Assembly (NCBI GenBank): GCA_964459835.1 | Contig: CAYWPA010000001.1 | Span: forward strand, 1,601 to 65,600 | From: an uncultured Methanosarcinales archaeon | GTDB lineage: Archaea > Nanobdellota > Nanobdellia > Woesearchaeales > UBA12501 | Direction of reading: 5' to 3' | Length of the DNA: 64,000 bases | Part shown: piece after piece, positions 30,223 through 46,188 of the stretch | How the letters are laid out: each line of letters opens with the position of its first letter | Numbering within the stretch: the first letter of the stretch is position 1 | The notes under the pieces: model-generated | Seen by the model: the letters and a program-made list of their open reading frames with translations, nothing else | Told to the model about the DNA's origin: nothing | The model's database searches: none | Position numbers and translations under genes: made by a program

Positions 30223-32652
30223 CTACAGTTCTTTTACAGCCTTTTCTATTTCCTCTGTTGCCCGGATATATGAACCATGCTTTACAATAATTGGCTTCCC
30301 TATATTTACTTTTGTCCTTGCAAATTTAGGGAATCTCTTCCATCTCGGAAGAACTTTTATTACATTCTCCACCTTTATCGGAACAACAGGAATGCCCATC
30401 TCTACAGCCAGTATTCCTATGCCCTGCTTAAAGCTTTGAATCTCCCCTGTCATTGTTCTTGCTCCCTCAGGATAAATCAAAATATTCCATTCTTTTCCTA
30501 CTAGCCTTCCTGTATATTTTAGGCTTCTCCTGAAGCCTTTTTGCTGTGGAAACGGGTAAATATTATAGAATATGGTTGCAAGGTGGTATAAAAGCCATTT
30601 CCCAAAGCCTTTGTATTTCAGGTTGTGCCTGAAGAAAAACTCCTGCCATGCTGCAACTGCTGTTTTAAGGGAAAACCTCAGCGGAAGCTTCATCAGTATT
30701 ATTGGCGTGTCAAAATGGCTTTGGTGATTTGCTGCAAAGATAACGGGGCTTTTCAATCCTTTTAAGTTCTCCCTTCCATAAATCCTTGGCCAGCTGAAAA
30801 ATCTTGCAATTTGGTTTGTTAAAGGCTGAAGTACAAAACGGAAAAATCTTGCTGCTAGGGAAAGCGCCCAATGCTTGAATATTGGCTTTTCCTCGATTAT
30901 TATTTTTTGTTTTATTATTTGTTCAAGCTCTTTTATTTTTGTGCTAGGTATCATTCTTTCTTCGTCTATCTCAATATTGAACTCCTGTTCCAGCAAAGAA
31001 ATCAATTCAACAATGTCAATTGAAGACAAGCCAAGATCTTGTAAAGTAGCAGCATCTGTTATTTTTTTATTGGTTAATTGTGAAATTATGCTATAAATCT
31101 TGTTCTTTTTCTTTACAATAACAGCTTCTTTTTTTGTTTTCAATGCTTCCTTAACAGCAAACTTTTTTATTTTTAGAGTTGTTGTTCTTGGAAAATCCTC
31201 ATATGGCCAGACAGAGTAATCCTTTATTTTCTGTGAAGAGTCAAGCTTTTCGTTTGCTTTGTCTACAATGTTTTTTGCCTTTGCTCCTTCTTTCAGCAGC
31301 AAAACAGCATATACCTCTTCTCCTTTCTTTCCATCCATTCCGATAACACAGCTATCTGCTACACCTTCTATTTTGTTCAGGATATTTTCAATATCTTCTG
31401 CATACACATTGATGCCTGCTGCTGTTACTATAACATCTTTTTTCCTTCCTTTCAGATAAAGAAATCCTTCATTATCAAATCTTCCTAAATCGCCTGTTTT
31501 AAGCCATCCATCCTCAAAAAGCTCTTTTGTCTTTGTCGGGTTCTTGTAGTAGCCTTGGGTTATATTATCGCCTTTTGCAACCACCTCTCCGTTCTTTATG
31601 CTAACTTCTACACCGGTAATGGCCCTTCCAACTGAGCCAATCTTGTGCTTTTTTGTCGTGTTTGCAGTTAAGATTGGAGAAGTTTCTGTTAAACCATATC
31701 CCTGAATAACAAGTATCCCTATGCTGTTGTAGAATCTTTCAAGCTCTTCATTCAGTGTTGCTCCGCCTGAAATAAAATAATTAATATTGTTTCCAAGCTT
31801 TTTATGGATTTTTCTGAACAATAATTTTCTTAGTGAAAACGGAATATATTTAGCAGCTTTCAATGCTATGAAAAACTGATTTTCTTTGTTTTTCTTTTTT
31901 ACTTCCTGCAGAATGCCTGAATATATTAATTCCAAAATTCTTGGAACAAATGCTGCATTTGTTATTTTTTCATCTTCAAAGGCCTCAAAGAGAGAACTTG
32001 GCTTTAGTGTCTTTACATAGACAATGCTTGCTTTTTGCGAAAGTGGAACAAAAAATCCTGTCATCTGCTCAAAGACATGGCTCAATGGAAGAACAGAAAG
32101 AAACTTGAATTTTGATTTTACTTTTTCAACTGAATTTATAGCATTTAAGTTTGAAATAAAATTCTTGTGTGTTAAAATAACTCCTTTTGGATTTCCTGTT
32201 GTTCCGGAAGTATATATTATCTCAGCAATGTCGTTTTCATTAACATCAGTAGAGTATGTCCCTTCTTCTAATGAATCAAGCAATTCCTCAACAAAAACTG
32301 TTTTTTGCTTTAATTTTGGCTTGTGCCTTGTCTGAAACACCAATTTTGCCTGAACAATATTCTGTATTTTCCTTGCAAACACAATATCTGACCTTAAATC
32401 CACTGGCACGACTATTACTCCTGCTAAAAACGCCCCCAAAAGCATGATAGCATATTCTATGCCGTTATAGCTCCAGACTATGATCATGTCTCCTTTATTT
32501 ACTTTGTTTTTCTTAAGAAAATAGGCGAATTTAGAAGAAAGCTTGTATAGCTCTTTGTAAGTATAGGCAAATTTTCTATACTCTTTTCTATCAATAACAG
32601 CAACTTTGTTTGATTCCTTAAATCCTTCAATTAAATCAGCTAAGGTTTTCAC
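30223..32652 (-). CDS. fatty-acyl-AMP ligase / carrier-protein / 1-acyl-sn-glycerol-3-phosphate acyltransferase (PlsC) tripartite fusion
   Basis: AMP-binding motifs IIYTSGTTGNPKGV, GYGLTET, GDLGRFDNEGFLYLKGRKKD; PP-binding LQDLGLSSIDIVEL; PlsC motifs NHQSHFD (HX4D) and YPEGAR. Confidence 0.8.
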   Translation of the reverse strand: MKTLADLIEGFKESNKVAVIDRKEYRKFAYTYKELYKLSSKFAYFLKKNKVNKGDMIIVWSYNGIEYAIMLLGAFLAGVIVVPVDLRSDIVFARKIQNIVQAKLVFQTRHKPKLKQKTVFVEELLDSLEEGTYSTDVNENDIAEIIYTSGTTGNPKGVILTHKNFISNLNAINSVEKVKSKFKFLSVLPLSHVFEQMTGFFVPLSQKASIVYVKTLKPSSLFEAFEDEKITNAAFVPRILELIYSGILQEVKKKNKENQFFIALKAAKYIPFSLRKLLFRKIHKKLGNNINYFISGGATLNEELERFYNSIGILVIQGYGLTETSPILTANTTKKHKIGSVGRAITGVEVSIKNGEVVAKGDNITQGYYKNPTKTKELFEDGWLKTGDLGRFDNEGFLYLKGRKKDVIVTAAGINVYAEDIENILNKIEGVADSCVIGMDGKKGEEVYAVLLLKEGAKAKNIVDKANEKLDSSQKIKDYSVWPYEDFPRTTTLKIKKFAVKEALKTKKEAVIVKKKNKIYSIISQLTNKKITDAATLQDLGLSSIDIVELISLLEQEFNIEIDEERMIPSTKIKELEQIIKQKIIIEEKPIFKHWALSLAARFFRFVLQPLTNQIARFFSWPRIYGRENLKGLKSPVIFAANHQSHFDTPIILMKLPLRFSLKTAVAAWQEFFFRHNLKYKGFGKWLLYHLATIFYNIYPFPQQKGFRRSLKYTGRLVGKEWNILIYPEGARTMTGEIQSFKQGIGILAVEMGIPVVPIKVENVIKVLPRWKRFPKFARTKVNIGKPIIVKHGSYIRATEEIEKAVKEL

Positions 32653-33431: not shown

Positions 33432-34052
33432 TTATTTCTTTGCTTCTACAAGCATCACAGACCAAAACCAGTTTGCTTTCCACCAGCTTATCCTTACATC
33501 CTTAAACTCATGAACCCTGAACAGCTTCCTCATTTCATTTGTTGAGTATGCCTTTTGATGTCCTTTCTTAAATCTCCATAGTTTTTCAAAAAACCAAACC
33601 CATCTTCCGTCTGTGCAGAAATCCGTCAATAGCAAAGTTCCGCCTTTTTTTAGAACCCTATGCATCTCTTCAAGAAATAAATTAACACTTGCCATGTGAT
33701 GTATAACATTTGTAGATACTATTTTTGAAAACTCATTGTCTTTAAATTCAATATTATGGGCATGCCCGTAAAGTATTTCAACATTCTTAAAGCCTTCCAG
33801 CTTTTTCTTTGCAATCCTTATCATCTTTTCAGAAACATCTATCCCTACAAGCCTCTTGTACTTGTTTTTCTCTGCAATCAGCCTAAGCAATTCCCCTGTT
33901 CCGCAGCCGACATCAAGAACAGCATCGTTTCGTGTCAGCTTCATGGATTCAAGTATTTTGTCATAAGAAGACCTGAGAAAAATCTGAAACTTTGTGTCGT
34001 ACTTCTCAGCACGCTTGTCGTACTCGCTCTGCACAGCCCTTGTAATATCCAT
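33432..34052 (-). CDS. class I SAM-dependent methyltransferase
   Basis: VLDVGCGTGELL motif I. Confidence 0.7.
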   Translation of the reverse strand: MDITRAVQSEYDKRAEKYDTKFQIFLRSSYDKILESMKLTRNDAVLDVGCGTGELLRLIAEKNKYKRLVGIDVSEKMIRIAKKKLEGFKNVEILYGHAHNIEFKDNEFSKIVSTNVIHHMASVNLFLEEMHRVLKKGGTLLLTDFCTDGRWVWFFEKLWRFKKGHQKAYSTNEMRKLFRVHEFKDVRISWWKANWFWSVMLVEAKK

Positions 34053-36111: not shown

Positions 36112-36498
36112 TTATGGAAGAGGGCATCCTGTCAGCGCTGATAAGCTTTCCAGAGGCATTACTCCTGCTTCTAATAGCTGCCCTTTTATGCTCCATGTTG
36201 GATAAGCCTTGATCCCAACCTCTTTGCATTCAGGATTTACATCGCAGTCCTTGAAGTCAATGTACCTGAAAGAATCCCCAAACATTTTTTTCTGGTTCTG
36301 GCAGTGTGGGCACCAGTTAGTGCCGTACATCGCTACATCATTCTCTGTCAGGCAGACTGCAAAGCTGTCATATTTTGCTGAGTCTGCTTTCTTTAAATAG
36401 AAAAATAAAGCAATAACAACGATAGCCAAAACAATTCCTGCCCTGAAGTAAAGCTTTTTCTGTTTACTGTCCATTTTATTTTGAAAGTTCTGCGTCAA
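36112..36498 (-). CDS. membrane-anchored thioredoxin-like protein
   Basis: N-terminal TM; MYGTNWCPHCQNQKK CxxC. Confidence 0.7.
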   Translation of the reverse strand: MTQNFQNKMDSKQKKLYFRAGIVLAIVVIALFFYLKKADSAKYDSFAVCLTENDVAMYGTNWCPHCQNQKKMFGDSFRYIDFKDCDVNPECKEVGIKAYPTWSIKGQLLEAGVMPLESLSALTGCPLP

Positions 36499-38659: not shown

Positions 38660-40849
38660 TTAGAATTTCTTTGCCTTCAGAAGAAGGGAGTTTCCTACAA
38701 CACTTACGCTGCTAAATACCATGGCTGCAGCTGCAATCATAGGGCTTAAAAGCAGCCCTGTAAATGGGTAAAGAACCCCTGCTGCGATAGGAATGCCTGC
38801 TGTATTGTAGAAAAATGACCAGAAAAGATTCTGCCTTATTGTGCTGAAGGTCTTTTTTGAAAGCTTAAGCGACTCAACAACTTTTAACGGATGGCCCCTT
38901 ACAAGCACTATGTTGCCTGCTTCAATGGCTATATCGGTTCCTGTGCCTATTGCAATGCCTAGGTCAGCCTGTACTAATGCAGGCGCATCATTAATGCCAT
39001 CTCCCACAAAAGCAACTTTTAATTTATCCCTCTGAAGCATTTTTACCTTGTCCGCCTTGTCCTGAGGAAGCACCTCTGCAAACACTTTTTCTATGCCAGC
39101 TTGCTTGGCAATTGCATCTGCTGTTCTTTTGTTATCCCCTGTAATCATGATAGTTTCAATCCCCATTGCCCTTAGCTTATTGACTGCTTCGAGCGAATCT
39201 TCTTTTAAAGTATCTGCAATGGCGATAATCCCCAATGCTTCTTTTTCATCTGCGACTACAATAACAGTCTTTGCCTGCTGCTCAAGCTCTTCAATCTTGC
39301 CCTGACATGTTTTTGTGGAAATATTATGCCCTTTCATTAAAACATTGTTACCGACAAATATTTTTTTGTTTCCAATAACTCCTGTAACGCCTTTTCCGGC
39401 AAAATTTTCAAATCTATGAACAATTTTTAATGCAATCTTTTTATCCTTTGCAGCGTTTACAACTGCCTGCGCCAATGGATGCTCTGATAATGCTTCTATG
39501 CTGGCTCCCAATGCCAACACACTATCTTCTGAAATATTTTTGCATGCAGCAATATTGGTTACTCTTGGCTTTCCCTCTGTTAATGTCCCTGTTTTATCAA
39601 ATATAACAACATCGATCTTTTTTCCCCTTTCCAGCGCCTCGCCGTTTTTAATCAAGATTCCTCTTTTTGCTCCAATGCCTGTTCCAACCATTATTGCTGT
39701 TGGTGTTGCAAGCCCAAGAGAGCAAGGGCAGGCAATGACAAGCACTGCAACTGCAGGAATCAAGCTTGCTGCAATATTTCCTGTAAAGAAATACCATACT
39801 GCAAATGTAATTATAGAGATAATAATAACAATAGGCACAAATATCCCTGAAACATTGTCTGCAAGCTTTTGTATCGGAGCTGTCTTTGTCTGCGCCTCTG
39901 TGACCATTTTTACGATCTGCGCAAGCACAGTGTCTTCTCCGACCTTTGTTGCCTTTATGTACAAAGCTCCATTGATATTTATAGTGGCTCCAAAAACATC
40001 ATCATCTTTCTGCTTTCCAACTGGCAGGCTTTCTCCTGTAAGCATGGATTCATCAACACTTGACATTCCCTTTGCAACCTTTCCATCAACTGGAATTTTT
40101 TCGCCGGGCTTTACAAGAAGTATGTCGCCAGCCTTAACCTGCTCAATGGGAATTTCCATTTCTTTGTTATTTTTTATTACCCTTGCTGTTTTGGCTCCAA
40201 GCTGAAGCAGCTTTTCAATGGCCTCGCTTGCCTGCCCCCTGCATTTTGCTTCAAAATACCTTCCAAGCAGAATAAATGCAGCAATAACAGCGCCTGTTTC
40301 AAAATAAAGGTCTGGCTTTCCTGCTGCCATGGCCCATGCACTGTAGAATAATGCAGCAAGAACACCTATTGATACTAAAGTGTCCATATTTGCAGACTTC
40401 ATTCTTGCCTGATGGATCATGCCTAAGTGGAACTCCCTTCCAAGAACAAGAATTACAAATGCGCTTAATAGTGCCTGGATCCAGAGGCTTGCATTAATGC
40501 CTAGGATATCCAGCGGCAGCTTGATACTGAACATAGCGATTATTAGCGGAGGGGCTGCCAGCAGCAATGCCAAAACAGCTCTCCTTTTTGTTGTAGCAAG
40601 CTCTTTTTGAGCTTCCTGCTTATGATTATGGGTGAATTGTTCAGTAAGCACCTTATACCCATTCTTTATGATTGCATCATGAAGGTCTTTCTCAGAAACA
40701 AGGCTTTCATCATACTCCACAGTTGCGCTGTGTGTTGCAAAATTAACCATGGCTTCAGAGACACCTTTTATTTTTTTCAGGCTTCTTTCATTTCGCACTG
40801 CACAAGAAGCGCAGTGCATTCCTGCAATATTAAAAGTTGTTTTTTTCAT
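38660..40849 (-). CDS. copA: copper-translocating P1B-type ATPase
   Basis: N-terminal [15 protein letters not shown]; CPC in TM6; DKTGTLT; GDGINDAP. Confidence 0.9.
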
Positions 40850-40856
40850 GTTTTGT

Positions 40857-41066
40857 TTATTTTTTACTTACTACCTTATATTCGCCAGCTGATTCAATTT
40901 CTTTTTTTAATCTCCCTAAATCAGCATTGTCATGCTCTATGGTTACTTTACCTGTCTTGAAATCAACAACACAATTCCTGACACCGGCAACATCCCTGCA
41001 TACATCTTCAATTACTGCTTTGCAGGATTCGCAGTGCATGCCTTTTATATACATTGTTGTTTTCAT
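40857..41066 (-). CDS. copZ: copper chaperone (HMA domain)
   Basis: [16 protein letters not shown]; 69 aa. Confidence 0.85.
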
Positions 41067-41107
41067 CTTCAGTGCTTTTTATATTTTTGCTATTCTTTTA
41101 TGTAGCG

Positions 41108-42541
41108 TCAGACAACATTGAACACGCCTGGGCCTGCCATCCCCATTGAGCAGCTGAATCTTATCGCTCCTGTTTTTTCTGGGGTAAAGGTAATGGTCTT
41201 TACCTTATCCCTGGGAAGAACTTCTGTGATGCCAAGCTGCGGAACAGAGATCACCTGTGCACAGCCCTGCGCTGCCCTTCCGTCAATCCTCCATTCTACA
41301 GGAACGCCTTCAGCAACAGTAAACTGCGATGGGTAATAATCACGCCCCATGACTTTCATTTCTATTATTTGTTTGCCGTCAGCTTCTCCAGCTGTTTTTA
41401 TGTAATCTGTGCCTGCGCCCTGGATTGTATTCTGGACTGTATTTTTTGAAAAGAAACCGGATTCAAGCGGATTTCCTGCCAAGGCAAAGCCATTGCTTAT
41501 GCTGAATATGCCTAGTAAAATAACTGCAACAGCAGATGTTTTTACAATATACCTGTGTGCTGCTCCTTTTGCAAAGCTTGAAACAGCGCCTAAAGAAACA
41601 AGCGCTGGAAGTGTTCCTAAGGAAAAGAAAAGCATTGTCAATGCTCCTGTCATAAAGCTTCCTGTGCTCAGCACATAAAGCTGCAATGCCTGTGTAAAGC
41701 CGCATGGAAGGAAAAATGTAGATGCCCCAAACAAGAAAGGGGCAGCTTTGCGGTTTTTGTCTGAAGAGGTATTGTAAATCTTATGCACTATGAACTTTGG
41801 CATCTTTGGCTGGAAGTATCTTAGCCATGGGAATATATTGAGCATCTGCAGGCCAAGCAGGACCATGACTATGCTTACAGCAACAGTCAGATAGCCTGTT
41901 GTACTTGCTGACAAAGTAAAGGCAGAGCCTAGCAACCCAACAAAACCGCCTAGAATTGTGTATGAAGCGATTCTTCCTATGTTGAAATAAATATGCGGCT
42001 TAAATTTCTGGTGTCCGCTTAGATTATGATGCTGCTGGTTGTACTTTGTTGCAACCGCAAGCAGCAGGCCTCCTGTAACTGCAAGGCATGTGGAGAATGC
42101 AGCAATGATCCCTATAATAAAAACAAGGCCATAGGTCATATTTTCAGAAACGCCTATATTTGGAAGTATATCAAACTGCTTGAAGATAAGGTATAATCCT
42201 AAAACAATAAGGAAAGCTGCTCCTATTTCCACATGGTCTTTTTTAAATTCATAGTGTTTGCTTTTGGCGGCGCTTTTCTTTGAAGGCTCAGCGCTTTCAT
42301 GCCTTGCCCCTTCCTTAAGCGAGGAAACTGTATAGCCATGCCCATGTATAGATTCATTTAATTCGTTTATGCTCGGTTCTCTTGCCTTGTAATACACTAT
42401 CGCCCTGCCGCTTGCATGGCTTACCCTAGCTTTCTTTACTCCCTCAATATTACTGAATTTTCTCTCGATAAGCACTTCGCAGCTCGCGCAGTGCATTCCG
42501 TTAACCCTTAGTTTTAGTTTTTTCAGGTTTTTGTTGCCCAT
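41108..42541 (-). CDS. HMA domain / Cys-containing permease (DsbD_2/MerT-like) / cupredoxin-like domain fusion protein
   Basis: N-terminal VNGMHCASCEVLIE; central 6-8 TM with Cys in helices (AAFSTCLAVTGG, FFLPCGF); C-terminal about 100 aa YYPSQFTV...FSCSMGMAG cupredoxin-like with a Cys/Met site. Confidence 0.55.
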   Translation of the reverse strand: MGNKNLKKLKLRVNGMHCASCEVLIERKFSNIEGVKKARVSHASGRAIVYYKAREPSINELNESIHGHGYTVSSLKEGARHESAEPSKKSAAKSKHYEFKKDHVEIGAAFLIVLGLYLIFKQFDILPNIGVSENMTYGLVFIIGIIAAFSTCLAVTGGLLLAVATKYNQQHHNLSGHQKFKPHIYFNIGRIASYTILGGFVGLLGSAFTLSASTTGYLTVAVSIVMVLLGLQMLNIFPWLRYFQPKMPKFIVHKIYNTSSDKNRKAAPFLFGASTFFLPCGFTQALQLYVLSTGSFMTGALTMLFFSLGTLPALVSLGAVSSFAKGAAHRYIVKTSAVAVILLGIFSISNGFALAGNPLESGFFSKNTVQNTIQGAGTDYIKTAGEADGKQIIEMKVMGRDYYPSQFTVAEGVPVEWRIDGRAAQGCAQVISVPQLGITEVLPRDKVKTITFTPEKTGAIRFSCSMGMAGPGVFNVV

Positions 42542-42599
42542 AGTCAGGATATGTTCTGAAACCCCTTATAAAAATAACGTGAAACTAGTTTCAGGATGA

Positions 42600-43157
42600 T
42601 TAGTTGAGAATAACTATATTAGTCATCCCCCTTCTCTGCCTTTCTATCAGCTTCTTTCCTTCCATCCTGTCAAGAATTCTTGTAAGCTGGACCTTTGTGA
42701 GGCCTGTTTCCTTCATTATATCGCTCTGGTACATAGAGCCGTCCTTCTGCACAAGCAGCTCATAAACCTTTTTTTCCCTTTCATCAAACTTTGAAATCTT
42801 TGAAATGTCGGCTTTTTCAGCCTTGGATATTGATTCTGTTGTTCCTGCTTCTTTCTTTTTCTTTGCACTTATTTCCCTTATTTCTGCTATTTCTTTTTTT
42901 ATAGGCTTAAAAATCATAAATATGCCGCTGCCAAAAATAAGCAAGGCAATCACAAATGCTGCAAGAACATACCACGATGCAATGTTTTCGTGTGCAGGGC
43001 ACTGCTCCATTGTTAGAGTGGGGGATTCTGCCACAACCTTGCATAGAAAAGCCCCTTCCTTGTCAAGATTGAGCTTGACAAAAATAAGAAGGATGATAAG
43101 TATAAAAGAAGATGCAACTAGTATTTTACCAATACTTTTCTGGTCAATGTTAGCCAT
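42600..43157 (-). CDS. membrane-tethered winged-helix transcriptional regulator
   Basis: 2 TM flanking a loop with a Cys pair (CKVV...EQC); charged linker; C-terminal MarR/TrmB-like wHTH (SDIMKETGLTKVQLTRILDRMEGKKLIER). Confidence 0.55.
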   Translation of the reverse strand: MANIDQKSIGKILVASSFILIILLIFVKLNLDKEGAFLCKVVAESPTLTMEQCPAHENIASWYVLAAFVIALLIFGSGIFMIFKPIKKEIAEIREISAKKKKEAGTTESISKAEKADISKISKFDEREKKVYELLVQKDGSMYQSDIMKETGLTKVQLTRILDRMEGKKLIERQRRGMTNIVILN

Positions 43158-43240
43158 ATTTTCCTTGTTTTTTGTTTGTATTTAAATGTTGCTAAAAATT
43201 AAGGCAAATCTTTAAATAAGCCACGACCTTCCTTCAAAAA

Positions 43241-43735
43241 ATGAATAACAAAAAAATAGGGGCAGTTTTTCTTGTAATCAGCATAGTCATTGCAATGATT
43301 ATAATCAAGCTAATGGGTGGTTTAAATACAAAGGCAAGTGAACTTGGCTGTTTTGATAAGCAGGGATGCCTGCAGATTGAATCTTCATTAAGCCTGGCCC
43401 ATATCTCTTTTGGCGTTATAGGATTTATCTTTGCCCTTGGCTTTTATCTTATTTTCTTTGCAAAGGGAGAGGAGGAAATCCTAAGGAGGTTAGAACAAGA
43501 CAAGCAAAAGCTGCTTGAAGATGAAAAATTTAATTTAATATTAAAAGGTCTTGATAATTTTGAAAAAAAAGCAATGAAGGCAATAAAAGAGCAGGATGGA
43601 ATAACTCAAAATACATTGCGAATAAGAACAGACATGTCAAAGGCAAAGCTTAGCTATGTTCTTAAGGATCTTGAAGATAAAGGATTAATAAAGAGAGTTA
43701 AAAAAGGAAAGACGCTTGCAGTGTTCTTAAAATAG
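43241..43735 (+). CDS. membrane-tethered winged-helix transcriptional regulator (paralog)
   Basis: 2 TM flanking a CFDKQGC loop; coiled-coil linker; C-terminal wHTH (ITQNTLRIRTDMSKAKLSYVLKDLEDKGLIKR); divergent to 42600..43157. Confidence 0.55.
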   Translation: MNNKKIGAVFLVISIVIAMIIIKLMGGLNTKASELGCFDKQGCLQIESSLSLAHISFGVIGFIFALGFYLIFFAKGEEEILRRLEQDKQKLLEDEKFNLILKGLDNFEKKAMKAIKEQDGITQNTLRIRTDMSKAKLSYVLKDLEDKGLIKRVKKGKTLAVFLK

Positions 43736-43868
43736 GCTGAGATTGCTTTATGAACGTTCTTAAAGCAGAATTCGGCATATATAGCCATTTTTACCAGTAC
43801 TGTTCATAGGATTGATTATTTATAATACTTCTATCTAAAATTCTTTAAAATCACATTGGAGGGATAAT

Positions 43869-44597
43869 ATGAAAAAAGAAAGTGAAAAAGAGGAAGCAAT
43901 CACATTCAAAAAATCAACATTATGGAAAGCTGCCGTAGTTATTTTGGCAATAATAGTAGTATGGCAGTTATTTTTTAAGACAGGAACAGGAGTAGGGGCA
44001 GCGGTGCCATCACCGGCTGCTCCGCCTCCCCCAACAGCTGCTGTAAGCGCTGCAGAACTGGAGGATGACGATGCCTTTTTGGGCAATGAAAATGCGCCAC
44101 TAACAATAGTGGAGTTTTCAGACTTCCAGTGCCCATTCTGCAGGAAGTTCTGGAAAGATACTTTGCCTAGCATAAAGAAAGATTATATCGACACAGGAAA
44201 GGTTAAGTTTGTCTACAGGGATTTCCCATTGACAAGCATACATCCGGGAGCTCAGCCGGCTGCAGAGGCAAGTGAATGTGCCAGAGAGCAGGATAGGTTC
44301 TGGCAGTACCATGACAAGATCTTTGAAGAGCAGGATAAAAGAGGACAGGGCACAGTTCAATTCGGAGTTGCTGACTTAAAACAATGGGCAGCTGACCTTG
44401 GACTGGATACAGGAAAGTTCAACAAATGCCTGGATTCAGGAAAATATTCTGCAGAAGTAAATAAAGACCTGATAGATGCACAAAGAGCAGGGGGACAGGG
44501 AACTCCTCATTTTGTCATTGGAAACACGCCGGTAAGCGGCGCAATGCCTTATTCATCTTTCAAGCCAGTGATTGACGCAGAGCTGGCAAGAAGCTAA
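43869..44597 (+). CDS. membrane-anchored DsbA-like thiol:disulfide oxidoreductase
   Basis: IVEFSDFQCPFCRKFW; GGAGG SD upstream. Confidence 0.8.
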   Translation: MKKESEKEEAITFKKSTLWKAAVVILAIIVVWQLFFKTGTGVGAAVPSPAAPPPPTAAVSAAELEDDDAFLGNENAPLTIVEFSDFQCPFCRKFWKDTLPSIKKDYIDTGKVKFVYRDFPLTSIHPGAQPAAEASECAREQDRFWQYHDKIFEEQDKRGQGTVQFGVADLKQWAADLGLDTGKFNKCLDSGKYSAEVNKDLIDAQRAGGQGTPHFVIGNTPVSGAMPYSSFKPVIDAELARS

Positions 44598-44624
44598 ATT
44601 TTTGTTTTTTATTATTTTTTAAAT

Positions 44625-45173
44625 ATGGAAGTAAAGAAAAGGATTAAAGATATACTTATTGCACTAAAAAACGTATATCAAAAACCGCTTTACATAGCTT
44701 TAGCTAGCTTTACAACTTTGCTTATATTAACTTTTAACATTAGCATAATCAATTACAGAGTTTATCTTAATTTCCCAAGCTTTGAAATTATCAGTAAAAT
44801 ATTCATTGGAACATTTTTGGCATTACCCGTTCATTCAATAATGCTTTTATTAATAGCATCGATTTTAAGCGGCATATTCGTTTCATTGCTGGTGTACCAA
44901 CTTAAAACTATAAAATCCATGAACAAGTCTTATGCAACAGGCGCAGGCGGCATTGTTTTGGGAACAATTGCTCCTGCCTGCGCTTCATGCGGCATTGGCT
45001 TGCTTGCTTTGCTTGGCTATACAGGATTAATTGCTGTTTTGCCTTTCAAAGGCCTGGAAGTAGGCTATCTTGGCATAGTTTTATTAATAATAGCAATATC
45101 TTCGATCTCAGCAAAGATATCTAATAAAACATGCAATATAAGCAATGCGAAACTCATTAAATATAGAAAATAA
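44625..45173 (+). CDS. CxxC-containing small permease-like membrane protein (MerT/DsbD_2-like?)
   Basis: ATGAGGIVLGTIAPACASCGIGLLALLG intramembrane CxxC; paralog of 45712..46188. Confidence 0.45.
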   Translation: MEVKKRIKDILIALKNVYQKPLYIALASFTTLLILTFNISIINYRVYLNFPSFEIISKIFIGTFLALPVHSIMLLLIASILSGIFVSLLVYQLKTIKSMNKSYATGAGGIVLGTIAPACASCGIGLLALLGYTGLIAVLPFKGLEVGYLGIVLLIIAISSISAKISNKTCNISNAKLIKYRK

Positions 45174-45213
45174 GATAAATAAGTTTAGTTTGCATAAAAT
45201 GATAACGTAAAAA

Positions 45214-45579
45214 ATGAAAAACACAATACAGACAACTTTGATGATAGACATTATATTTATCATTTTAGCTATTGCAGGATGTACAAGTCAGACAATAAGC
45301 AGCAAAGGAACAGGGGAATTAAAAGAATTTAATGCAGTTATAAGTGAATATAGTTACAATCCTTCTTCTATAACTGTTAATTTTGGCGATACAGTGAAGG
45401 TAAATATAAAGAACACTGATGGGGTAACTCACGGCATATCCTTGCCGGTTTTTGGCGTACAGGAGTTTGTAAAGCCAGGAGAAACAAAAACAATACAGTT
45501 TGTGGCAAACCAGCGTGGTCAGCCAGAAACATTTTGCAGTACAGACCATGGAGAGAAATTATTTATTGAGGTGATATAA
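45214..45579 (+). CDS. cupredoxin-fold lipoprotein
   Basis: Signal with ILAIAGC lipobox; HGISLP and FCSTDHGEKLFIEV cupredoxin-like ligands. Confidence 0.55.
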   Translation: MKNTIQTTLMIDIIFIILAIAGCTSQTISSKGTGELKEFNAVISEYSYNPSSITVNFGDTVKVNIKNTDGVTHGISLPVFGVQEFVKPGETKTIQFVANQRGQPETFCSTDHGEKLFIEVI

Positions 45580-45711
45580 TGGGGCATCATCCGGCAGCAG
45601 GAATGCAAGTTGCAAGCTCATCAGGAATTCCATCTGAAGTATGGTTTATAATTCTCGTTGGTATTGCAGTCTTAATTTATCTTATTTATAAGTTTACAAA
45701 GAAAAACTAAG

Positions 45712-46188
45712 ATGAGAAAAAAACAAAAGAAAAATCCGGCATCATGGCCTTATGTAGCTATTGGCTCAGTTGCCGCAATAATAGCTTTCTTTTTATTTGG
45801 AATACCCACTGCAGTAATACCAAACTCTTATTTTTTCAGAATGTCGCCTGTAACAATTTTTGACTATATTTTTCTTCCGATAAATTCTGTTTTGTTTGGG
45901 GCTTTTATTGCTCTTTTATTTTACCAAGGAAATTACAAAAGGCTGATAAAACTAAAAAATACAAAAACAGAAAGCGCAGCAACTGGAGCTGCATTTGTCA
46001 ATGTTTTAGCATTGGGCTGCCCAATATGCAATGTAGTGCTTGTCTCATTATTCAGCACAACAGCTTTGATGACTTATCTAGAGCCTGCAAGGCCTGCACT
46101 TTCAGTATTAACTGCAGGAATTCTCGGAACAGCAATCTATTTCAAGGCAAAGAGCATAAAGGAATGCAAAGTTTGCAAAAGAAAATAA
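45712..46188 (+). CDS. CxxC-containing small permease-like membrane protein (paralog)
   Basis: ATGAAFVNVLALGCPICNVVLVSLF; C-terminal KECKVCKRK. Confidence 0.45.
   Translation: MRKKQKKNPASWPYVAIGSVAAIIAFFLFGIPTAVIPNSYFFRMSPVTIFDYIFLPINSVLFGAFIALLFYQGNYKRLIKLKNTKTESAATGAAFVNVLALGCPICNVVLVSLFSTTALMTYLEPARPALSVLTAGILGTAIYFKAKSIKECKVCKRK

Follow-up and report, generated by a model that had tools for sequence, protein, structure and literature searches.

The subject of this study is a 64,000-nt stretch of archaeal DNA (hereafter the window; contig CAYWPA010000001.1, positions 1,601 to 65,600) and, within it, two divergently transcribed genes, regA and regB, that lie in an island of copper and disulfide-bond (Dsb) genes. 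Each encodes a small protein with a predicted membrane hairpin of two transmembrane (TM) segments, a cysteine pair in the outside loop, and a C-terminal winged helix-turn-helix (wHTH) domain. Each of the two families has, closely 3' of its gene, a conserved DNA element that overlaps the promoter of the gene that follows. It is very likely that regA and regB are membrane-tethered regulators acting on adjacent promoters. The fuller reading that we favour, and hold to be probable, is that the two are one-component regulators that take their signal from the outside cysteine loop, the first serving copper and the second oxidative folding; for the single claim that this loop is the sensor, the sequence evidence leaves the balance even. 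The architecture and its association with operator-like elements are well supported, and the link to Dsb and copper genes is strong. We infer a thiol or metal switch in the loop, as well as the binding of the elements by regA and regB, the sign of regulation and the type of signal.

Two paralogues with a shared layout

An earlier note on this DNA had described regA and regB as divergent genes whose products share the order TM1, outside loop, TM2, charged linker and wHTH. ORF calls return both genes where they had been placed (42600-43157 on the minus strand and 43241-43735 on the plus strand), with 83 bp between the two open reading frames (ORFs), and hydropathy, Pfam, AlphaFold2 (AF2) and Foldseek agree on the layout. 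The hydrophobic 19-mers of both proteins have a mean Kyte-Doolittle hydropathy of 2.4-2.9. In BLASTP regA and regB are 28% identical over TM2, linker and wHTH (E=7e-7), and by this similarity they are paralogues.

A word-indexed search returned 84 relatives of regA (40-53% identity) and 608 of regB at E<=1e-3; regB counts out of 120 refer to the best 120 of these (55-74% identity). The N-terminus is basic and the loop acidic in 81/84 regA and 118/120 regB homologues. Family means of K+R against D+E are 1.7/0.4 for the N-terminus and 2.4/5.8 for the loop in regA, and 2.0/0.4 and 2.1/4.0 in regB. Because of this charge pattern (the positive-inside rule), and because the wHTH is necessarily cytoplasmic, both proteins are predicted to have the N-terminus in, the loop out and the C-terminus in, which places the cysteine pair outside rather than in the cytoplasm, as had been proposed.

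In AF2 models built on the family alignments, a linker helix joins a helical hairpin to a domain of three helices and a wing, and the mean predicted local distance difference test (pLDDT) score is 87.9 for regA and 86.4 for regB; the regB loop is modelled at moderate confidence (pLDDT 67-68). Foldseek against the PDB matched the predicted wHTH to the winged helices of MarR, ArsR, TFIIE and Rpc34 at 1.2-2.5 A over ~62-65 residues, so that the fold expected from the sequence is present. By sequence, no relative of solved structure was found below E=1e-3.

Both proteins belong to Pfam DUF7343 (PF24034), with 46.8 bits for regA (aa 127-184) and 39.0 bits for regB (aa 108-161) against a gathering threshold of 27.6, and this domain is present in all homologues listed for the two. 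The wHTH had been called MarR/TrmB-like. The MarR half of that description holds marginally and for the wHTH core only: regA scores 25.5 and 27.8 bits and regB 27.3 and 29.4 bits with PF01047 and PF12802, whose gathering thresholds are 24.6 and 27.0 bits. TrmB (PF01978) does not hold, as regA (23.8 bits) and regB (19.9 bits) lie below its gathering threshold of 25.6. Furthermore, a canonical MarR protein is soluble, ~140-150 aa long, with dimer helices flanking the wHTH, whereas the N-terminal half of regA and regB is a TM hairpin and each protein ends at the wing.

A conserved cysteine pair in the outside loop

The two loop cysteines are the only cysteines in each protein, and the sole histidines (H56 in regA and H54 in regB) are also in the outside segment. 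In regA the pair is C39/C53, a C-x13-C spacing, which corrects the C-x14-C reported before; in regB it is C37/C43, a C-x5-C spacing within CFDKQGC, as reported. The family alignment of regA has C39 and C53 invariant within FLC-x13-CPAH, and the wing RKRRGMTN is invariant too. The pair is kept in 82/84 regA matches; 72/84 have exactly two cysteines, the x13 spacing is found in 65 of 84, and M-x2-C-P-[AVG]-H surrounds the second cysteine in ~74/84. Similarly, G36, C37 and C43 are invariant in the regB family alignment, and H54 and TM2 are highly conserved. Here the pair is kept in 119/120 matches and the same number have exactly two cysteines, with the x5 spacing in 115 of 120 and C-x2-[IVL]E-x6-H in most. 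Judged from these alignments, conservation of the cysteine pair exceeds chance.

The pair extends well beyond these close relatives. An exhaustive profile search with regA, run on 50%-identity clusters, gave 154 clusters at E<=1e-30, 764 at 1e-10 and 4043 at 1e-3. At least two cysteines are found in the N-terminal 90 residues of 137/138 full-length top superfamily representatives, with spacings from x1 to x14 and frequent CP[AVHM][HY] motifs. Since it is kept in nearly all of these representatives, we take the loop cysteine pair to be a hallmark of the superfamily and not peculiar to regA and regB. The named relatives of both proteins all come from metagenome-assembled genomes of Woesearchaeota, Pacearchaeota or Nanoarchaeota.

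In some genomes a second, more divergent regB-like gene (34-41% identity) lies a few kb from the first (locus L010, 11330-11857; locus L023, 11309-11839), and therefore the superfamily has diversified beyond the two paralogues of this window. Within the 64 kb there are no further regA or regB paralogues, nor homologues of the other palindrome-controlled families described below.

A conserved palindrome between regA and the cop operon

The regA-type element is a perfect 14-bp palindrome, TGAAACTAGTTTCA, that adjoins the B recognition element (BRE) and TATA box of the downstream operon (Table 1). A third half-site, GTTTCA, follows the TATA box, 15 nt before the ATG (42539-42541) of the HMA-DsbD-cupredoxin gene. 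The window has a single perfect copy of TGAAACTAGTTTCA; additional copies of this palindrome or of the regB element appear there only as matches with 2-3 mismatches, at chance level. In 1.6 Mb of related loci, by comparison, the palindrome occurs 91 times with at most one mismatch, against ~0.3 expected. It lies within 120 nt past the regA stop in 32/77 loci, and in 15 of 77 the TGA stop of regA is itself the first triplet of the palindrome.

The arrangement around the palindrome is conserved as well, with the consensus TGAAACTAGTTTCA-N6-tTTAaATAAg-gT-GTTTCA. TTTC follows 12-32 nt downstream of 67/89 palindromes, where the background is 12.5%, and its position is precisely +19 in 46/72 distinct sequences. 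Genes that start 37-50 nt past the palindrome encode a TM-anchored Cys-rich protein (33), an HMA chaperone, HMA-DsbD-cupredoxin or cupredoxin (10), DUF411 (4), a Met-rich membrane protein (4) and short-loop regA-like proteins (11); the last are transcribed divergently from the palindrome. The palindrome co-occurs with the regA-type wing RKRRGMTN, the short-loop paralogues included. We take the palindrome to be a DNA site because as RNA it would have a 6-bp stem closed by only 2 nt, too short a loop for a hairpin.

The Cys-rich protein behind the TGAAACTAGTTTCA promoter is ~225 aa long, with an N-terminal TM anchor and a CEYCCG...ACGCAHS cluster, and has no Pfam or NCBIfam match. Its gene is found at L094:4707, L100:3701, L118:8471 and ~30 other places and is absent from the window. 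The regA-type regulon probably counts this unstudied protein among its major members.

A bipartite element between regB and the DsbA operon

The regB-type element consists of two inverted boxes in the spacer between regB and the DsbA-like operon, the second of them just in front of the operon promoter. Box 1, TATGAACGTTCT, has its sole perfect copy in the window at this place. In 38/77 loci the exact heptamer ATGAACG is no more than 90 nt from the regB stop (background 0.12 per kb), and in 39 distinct loci the TGAACG and CGTTCA boxes are exactly 52 nt apart. An ungapped alignment of 32 sequences of the element (alignment A3) has columns T11, T13, A15, A16 and C17 of box 1 and G64, T65 and T66 of box 2 invariant, while the remainder drifts. 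As a bipartite pattern, ATGAAC-N45-47-GTTCA has 65 matches against 2-6 in shuffles. Directly after regB stand 35 of these 65, and 37 lie within 260 nt upstream of genes for DsbA-like proteins, memb_44625, cupredoxins or memb_45712; 10 have no adjacent regB and yet precede DsbA-like or CASC genes.

Between the boxes lies a hairpin with a T-run that is probably the transcription terminator of regB. Besides the half-sites, columns 30-54 of alignment A3 hold AAATTT and TTTTAGCC-TTTT blocks that are conserved in position; we read them as the regB terminator, and their positional conservation exceeds what a terminator needs.

An RNA element in the regB-dsbA spacer was considered and set aside; DNA sites with a terminator-like hairpin are the preferred reading. 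RNAalifold gave -1.93 kcal/mol for the regB element with only the invariant GAAC/GTTC pairing, and so no conserved structure, and Rfam has no family for it, the one match being a chance snoRNA at E=0.85.

The spacer between regA and regB was likewise rejected as the site of an operator. Conserved operators between the two genes had been suggested as a check; the check finds none there, and the conserved elements lie 3' of each gene instead. The 83-bp spacer contains two back-to-back TATA boxes and no TGAAAC or TGAAC half-site. Among 75 regB upstream regions only the BRE/TATA at -36..-22 is conserved, and across these and 73 regA upstream regions gapped palindromes are not enriched over shuffles, so that BRE/TATA alone is conserved and orthologues carry no conserved palindrome upstream. 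Because each TATA box is ~21-22 nt from its ATG, the regA and regB transcripts are predicted to be leaderless.

Gene neighbourhood

The island around regA and regB, which the earlier note had called a Dsb/copper island, does hold CopA, an HMA chaperone, the HMA-DsbD_2-cupredoxin fusion, a cupredoxin and at least three DsbA-like proteins. Past CopA, the minus-strand arm continues with CorA and two DsbA-like proteins.

To compare related loci we mapped the window proteins onto 80 regB loci from genomes and 80 regA loci from metagenomes. In the 2.5 kb that follow regB, a DsbA-like gene in the same orientation is present in 52/66 loci (79%) and memb_44625 in 28/66; the upstream neighbours of regB vary. 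CopA is within 6 kb of regA in 9/15 loci having both flanks and within 6 kb of regB in 8/33 such loci. In several loci regA is directly beside the CopA or the HMA-DsbD-cupredoxin gene, and many regA loci show none of the window's genes. Together with the palindromes found before HMA, CopA, cupredoxin and DUF411 genes, the DsbA-like genes after regB bear out the proposed functional connection to Dsb and copper.

The divergent pair did not hold up as a unit. A divergent regA/regB arrangement occurs in only ~1-2 of 80 regB loci and regA is seldom near regB, which rules out a conserved divergent unit; because divergence is confined to one or two loci, we regard the pair as a local juxtaposition of two independent modules.

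Table 1. Features of regA, regB, their elements and the adjoining operons, in window positions
Feature	Position	Strand	Basis or remark
regA, predicted 185-aa membrane-tethered regulator	42600-43157	-	ORF, Pfam DUF7343, AF2 model
regA TM1	aa 9-27, nt 43077-43133	-	hydrophobic 19-mer
regA outside loop	aa 28-63, nt 42969-43076	-	carries C39, M50, C53, P54, H56
regA C39	nt 43041-43043	-	
regA C53	nt 42999-43001	-	
regA TM2	aa 64-82, nt 42912-42968	-	followed by charged linker
regA wHTH	aa ~124-185, nt 42603-42788	-	
regB, 164-aa paralogue of regA	43241-43735	+	ORF, Pfam DUF7343, AF2 model
regB TM1	aa 6-24, nt 43256-43312	+	hydrophobic 19-mer
regB outside hairpin tip	aa 25-54, nt 43313-43402	+	carries G36, C37, C43, E47, H54
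regB C37	nt 43349-43351	+	
regB C43	nt 43367-43369	+	
regB TM2	aa 55-73, nt 43403-43459	+	followed by linker helix
regB wHTH	aa ~103-164, nt 43547-43732	+	
Divergent spacer, two back-to-back core promoters	43158-43240	.	sequence
regA TATA box	43179-43186	-	plus-strand tatttaaa, read on the minus strand; ~21-22 nt from regA ATG
regB TATA box TTTAAATA	43212-43219	+	~21-22 nt from regB ATG
regA-type putative operator, perfect 14-bp palindrome TGAAACTAGTTTCA	42580-42593	.	6 nt past regA stop codon
cop operon core promoter	42557-42574	-	flanked by regA-type sites
cop operon TATA box TTTTTATAA (minus strand)	42566-42574	-	5 nt past palindrome
Third half-site GTTTCA (plus strand TGAAAC)	42557-42562	-	reported 4 nt past TATA box
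Presumed regA target operon	38660-42541	-	ORFs, Pfam; gene gaps 41 and 7 nt
HMA-DsbD_2(CcdA-like)-cupredoxin fusion	41108-42541	-	first gene behind regA palindrome
HMA chaperone	40857-41066	-	presumed regA target operon
CopA P1B ATPase, CPC motif	38660-40849	-	presumed regA target operon
regB box 1 TATGAACGTTCT, core TGAACG	43749-43760	+	13 nt past regB stop
Hairpin GGCATATATAGCC and T-run between boxes	43774-43792	+	sequence; T-run position conserved in alignment A3
regB box 2 TGTTCA, inverted copy of box 1	43801-43806	+	52 nt downstream of box 1, directly 5' of BRE/TATA
BRE/TATA TATTTATAAT of DsbA operon promoter	43817-43826	+	
DsbA operon Shine-Dalgarno sequence GGAGGG	43858-43863	+	
DsbA operon ATG	43869	+	
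Presumed regB target operon	43869-46188	+	ORFs, Pfam, NCBIfam
Membrane-anchored DsbA-like oxidoreductase, CPFC	43869-44597	+	
memb_44625, uncharacterised membrane protein, intramembrane CASC	44625-45173	+	
Cupredoxin	45214-45579	+	
43-aa ORF	45579-45710	+	
memb_45712, membrane protein with CPIC, weakly MerT-like	45712-46188	+	

Several neighbouring proteins deserve mention in their own right. The polytopic memb_44625 (182 aa), which neither Pfam nor NCBIfam matches, carries C-A-S-C within the membrane. Among the neighbours of regB it ranks second in conservation, standing beside the DsbA-like gene in either order, and it is a candidate functional counterpart of DsbB/VKOR that would re-oxidise the archaeal DsbA. 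In memb_45712 (158 aa) a TM segment contains GCPICN and the C-terminus CKVCK; its MerTP-like match is weak (NF033556, 19.8 bits against a cut-off of 180), and it recurs near regA and regB in other loci. In the fusion protein at 41108-42541 the HMA domain is cytoplasmic, the DsbD_2/CcdA-like core for thiol transfer lies in the membrane and the cupredoxin-like domain is extracytoplasmic; the protein is kept at 49-55% identity in many related loci. This mix of domains suggests delivery of electrons or thiols to an outside copper site.

Further away on the minus strand, a SAM-dependent methyltransferase (33432-34052; Methyltransf_31/11, with weak ArsM/UbiE-like matches) recurs in several loci directly upstream of regA or among cop genes, and adjoins regA in L092, L096, L102 and L125, which hints at a metal(loid)-related role. 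A 128-aa protein (36112-36498) recurs beside clusters of DsbA and CASC-membrane genes in ~10 regB loci; it has a TM segment at its N-terminus and a CxxC region that weakly resembles glutaredoxin (TIGR02196, below cut-off at E=5.9e-5). Finally, an 809-aa protein (30223-32652) joins an AMP-binding enzyme to a phosphopantetheine carrier and an acyltransferase (Aas-like acyl-ACP synthetase/acyltransferase), a fusion that is unusual in a small DPANN genome.

Comparison with known regulators

Both regA and regB fall under the operational definition of transmembrane transcription regulators (TTRs), having a DNA-binding domain and at least one TM region. The earlier note had called such an arrangement rarely described in archaea. 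A census counted 1,384 TTRs in 367/404 archaeal species, ~4 per genome, ~17% of them with two TM regions (PMC10269533), and so they are common; what stands of the statement is that few have been studied. A word search of the census text found no mention of DPANN, MarR/TrmB or cysteine, and it reports no conserved cysteines, operators or targets for the regA/regB family (PMC10269533). A literature search gave no mention of DUF7343. Judging from sequence, what is new here is a TTR with a minimal cysteine loop, a C-terminal DUF7343 wHTH and defined candidate operators in DPANN archaea.

Among membrane-bound regulators, ToxR, TcpP and CadC demonstrate that periplasmic cysteine pairs can exert control; the thiol/disulfide state of these cysteines depends on DsbA-type enzymes and tunes activity or stability (PMC3483227, PMC6242745, PMC7017273, PMC3096576). 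They resemble regA and regB in being one-component proteins that bind DNA while in the membrane (predicted for regA and regB) and that carry an extracytoplasmic cysteine pair. In contrast, they have an N-terminal OmpR-type wHTH, a single TM segment and a folded C-terminal periplasmic domain, whereas regA and regB have an N-terminal two-TM hairpin, a ~30-residue outside tip and a C-terminal DUF7343/MarR-like wHTH. No Trans_reg_C match was found in regA or regB, and with a C-terminal wHTH and two TM segments the architecture is not ToxR-like. The host also differs, with archaeal BRE/TATA promoters and presumed dsbA-like and cop targets instead of virulence or acid-response genes, and there is no sequence homology. 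We therefore regard ToxR, TcpP and CadC as the nearest functional analogues, by analogy and not by membership.

Within archaea, ArnR and ArnR1 of Sulfolobus acidocaldarius are experimentally studied membrane-bound one-component factors (PMC6396743), and like regA and regB they are paralogues. Their domain order is the opposite, with an N-terminal HTH and C-terminal TM helices; they act on archaellum/pilus genes under starvation, and no cysteine loop is described for them in this source (PMC6396743).

As for copper regulators, archaeal CopR is a soluble protein with an HTH and a TRASH domain (PMC7830388). CopR and the bacterial CopY/CsoR/CueR control copA/copZ-type operons from promoter operators, as is proposed for regA, and like regA they are encoded beside cop genes. 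Unlike regA, they are soluble proteins that detect Cu(I) in the cytoplasm by means of TRASH or cysteine clusters. Neither regA nor regB has a TRASH match in Pfam or NCBIfam or a cytoplasmic cysteine, which sets them apart from archaeal CopR. Scores for ArsR/SmtB (NCBIfam NF033788, cut-off 55 bits) are 20.5 for regB and 14.1 for regA, below cut-off, and for the CopY/BlaI domain Penicillinase_R (PF03965, gathering 22.6 bits) regB reaches 13.4 (E=0.099) and regA has no match. Since the cytoplasmic part of regA is free of Cys and His and a TRASH domain is absent, any metal sensing by regA would be extracytoplasmic. Lastly, the Scs system of Salmonella ties DsbD-like and DsbA-like thiol oxidoreductases to copper tolerance under Cpx control (PMC10907172). 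It shares with the regA/regB island the clustering of Dsb and copper genes, with envelope-sensing induction in Scs; the Scs regulator is the two-component CpxAR and not, as here, an island-encoded TM regulator with a cysteine loop.

Proposed mechanism and alternatives

In the reading that we favour, a regA dimer would occupy TGAAACTAGTTTCA plus the third GTTTCA half-site and so bracket the TATA box of the cop operon, while regB would occupy the TGAACG/CGTTCA boxes, the distal one just upstream of the BRE/TATA of the DsbA-like operon. A regulator bound upstream of BRE/TATA in an archaeal promoter tends to be an activator, and one bound over the TATA box or past it a repressor. Since its putative sites bracket the TATA box, regA would be a repressor; since its distal box is just upstream of BRE/TATA, regB would be an activator or a BRE-occluder. 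An operator beside the regulator gene would be expected because a membrane-bound factor reaches only DNA that comes to the membrane.

The signal would be read outside the cell by the cysteine loop. In regA, C-x13-C-P-A-H and the conserved Met (M-x2-CPxH) could form a plausible site for Cu(I) or another thiophilic metal with a Cys2-His-Met ligand set. In regB, the C-x5-C hairpin tip is a plausible DsbA substrate, and its thiol/disulfide state would report oxidative-folding capacity or copper-induced thiol stress. TM2, predicted to run through a contiguous linker helix into the cytoplasmic wHTH, would relay the state of the loop: stapling or unstapling the hairpin tip may alter the packing of TM1 and TM2, a change that the linker helix would pass on to the wHTH dimer by shifting its geometry. 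A bolder version, in which regB is a self-contained homeostat of disulfide formation whose oxidised/reduced ratio sets dsbA operon transcription, with regA as its copper-reading paralogue, is a tentative proposal whose chances we put well short of even.

Several points weigh against the favoured reading. The assignment of the elements to regA and regB rests on adjacency and co-occurrence. Around half of the regA loci have no recognisable copper gene in reach, and the commonest palindrome-controlled gene is that of the uncharacterised Cys-rich protein. Box 1 of the regB element is only a half-site in many lineages. The high conservation of regB and its near-universal adjacency to dsbA are also compatible with a constitutive role. 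Finally, extracytoplasmic cysteine pairs in DsbA-bearing organisms are mostly plain structural disulfides, and the x1-x14 range of superfamily spacings suits a generic staple as well as a tuned sensor.

These last points lead to the alternative that regA and regB do bind the adjacent elements and that the cysteine pair is merely a structural disulfide, with another signal (membrane state, a partner or regulated proteolysis) or constitutive action. We consider this unlikely while granting it a modest chance. The usual structural role of cysteine pairs in exported segments speaks for it, as do the DsbA-like oxidases of the window, of which there are at least three, the retention of the pair itself across a superfamily in which its spacing is highly variable, and a regB loop modelled at no more than moderate confidence. 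On the other hand, an outside segment of ~30 residues offers no domain to stabilise, the regA cysteines sit in a conserved M-x2-C-P-x-H motif of typical soft-metal ligands, and the linked genes are precisely those for thiol oxidoreductases and copper. Moreover, every Cys and His of the two proteins is outside, and the cytoplasmic part has no ligand-like site.

Alternatively, both proteins could sense copper or another thiophilic metal; the DsbA-type operon would then belong to a copper-stress regulon, and regB would not report on oxidative-folding capacity. The operons behind regB often include a cupredoxin and MerT-like membrane proteins, CopA is near regB in the 8/33 two-flank loci noted above, and an HMA-DsbD-cupredoxin or HMA chaperone gene is sometimes directly upstream of regB. 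A Glu and a His are kept near the regB cysteine pair, and bacterial Dsb-like proteins handle copper damage to periplasmic thiols (PMC10907172). This alternative is nonetheless improbable: the linkage of regB to DsbA (79%) is far tighter than to copper genes, the regB loop has no Met/CPxH motif like that of regA, and the presence in one island of two paralogues, each with an operator of its own, points to two different inputs.

That another factor or an RNA (3' untranslated region, terminator or leader) accounts for the elements, leaving the winged helices of regA and regB for a role such as chromosome tethering or protein contacts, would fit the hairpin and T-run inside the regB element and the non-DNA-binding roles of some winged helices (ribosomal eS25 and DsrD are among the Foldseek matches), yet it is highly improbable, as RNAalifold found no conserved structure and paired columns that are invariant instead of covarying, Rfam gave no match, the regA palindrome would leave a 2-nt loop, both elements are in fixed register with TATA boxes, and the palindrome accompanies RKRRGMTN wings, those of the divergently transcribed short-loop paralogues included.

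Implications for DPANN archaea

Few recognisable signalling systems are encoded in the tiny genomes of DPANN archaea, and to our knowledge next to nothing has been established about how they regulate envelope functions. The widespread family described here offers a complete testable module, comprising a sensor-regulator of ~160 aa, a candidate operator (TGAAACTAGTTTCA or TGAACG-N-CGTTCA), a promoter and targets, which are presumed to be genes for copper export and disulfide-bond formation. With the candidate operators, copper and Dsb regulons could be predicted in archaea that have not been cultivated, and these operators point to unstudied target families such as the Cys-rich 225-aa protein and the intramembrane-CxxC partners of DsbA. 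Should the cysteine loop prove to be the sensor, few known TM signal-input modules would be as small, and regA and regB would be an archaeal counterpart of the disulfide-controlled ToxR, TcpP and CadC, reached by a different architecture. If regB were indeed a disulfide-formation homeostat, it would be the first dedicated oxidative-folding sensor-regulator described in archaea, with a minimal transmembrane sensor of ~30 residues.

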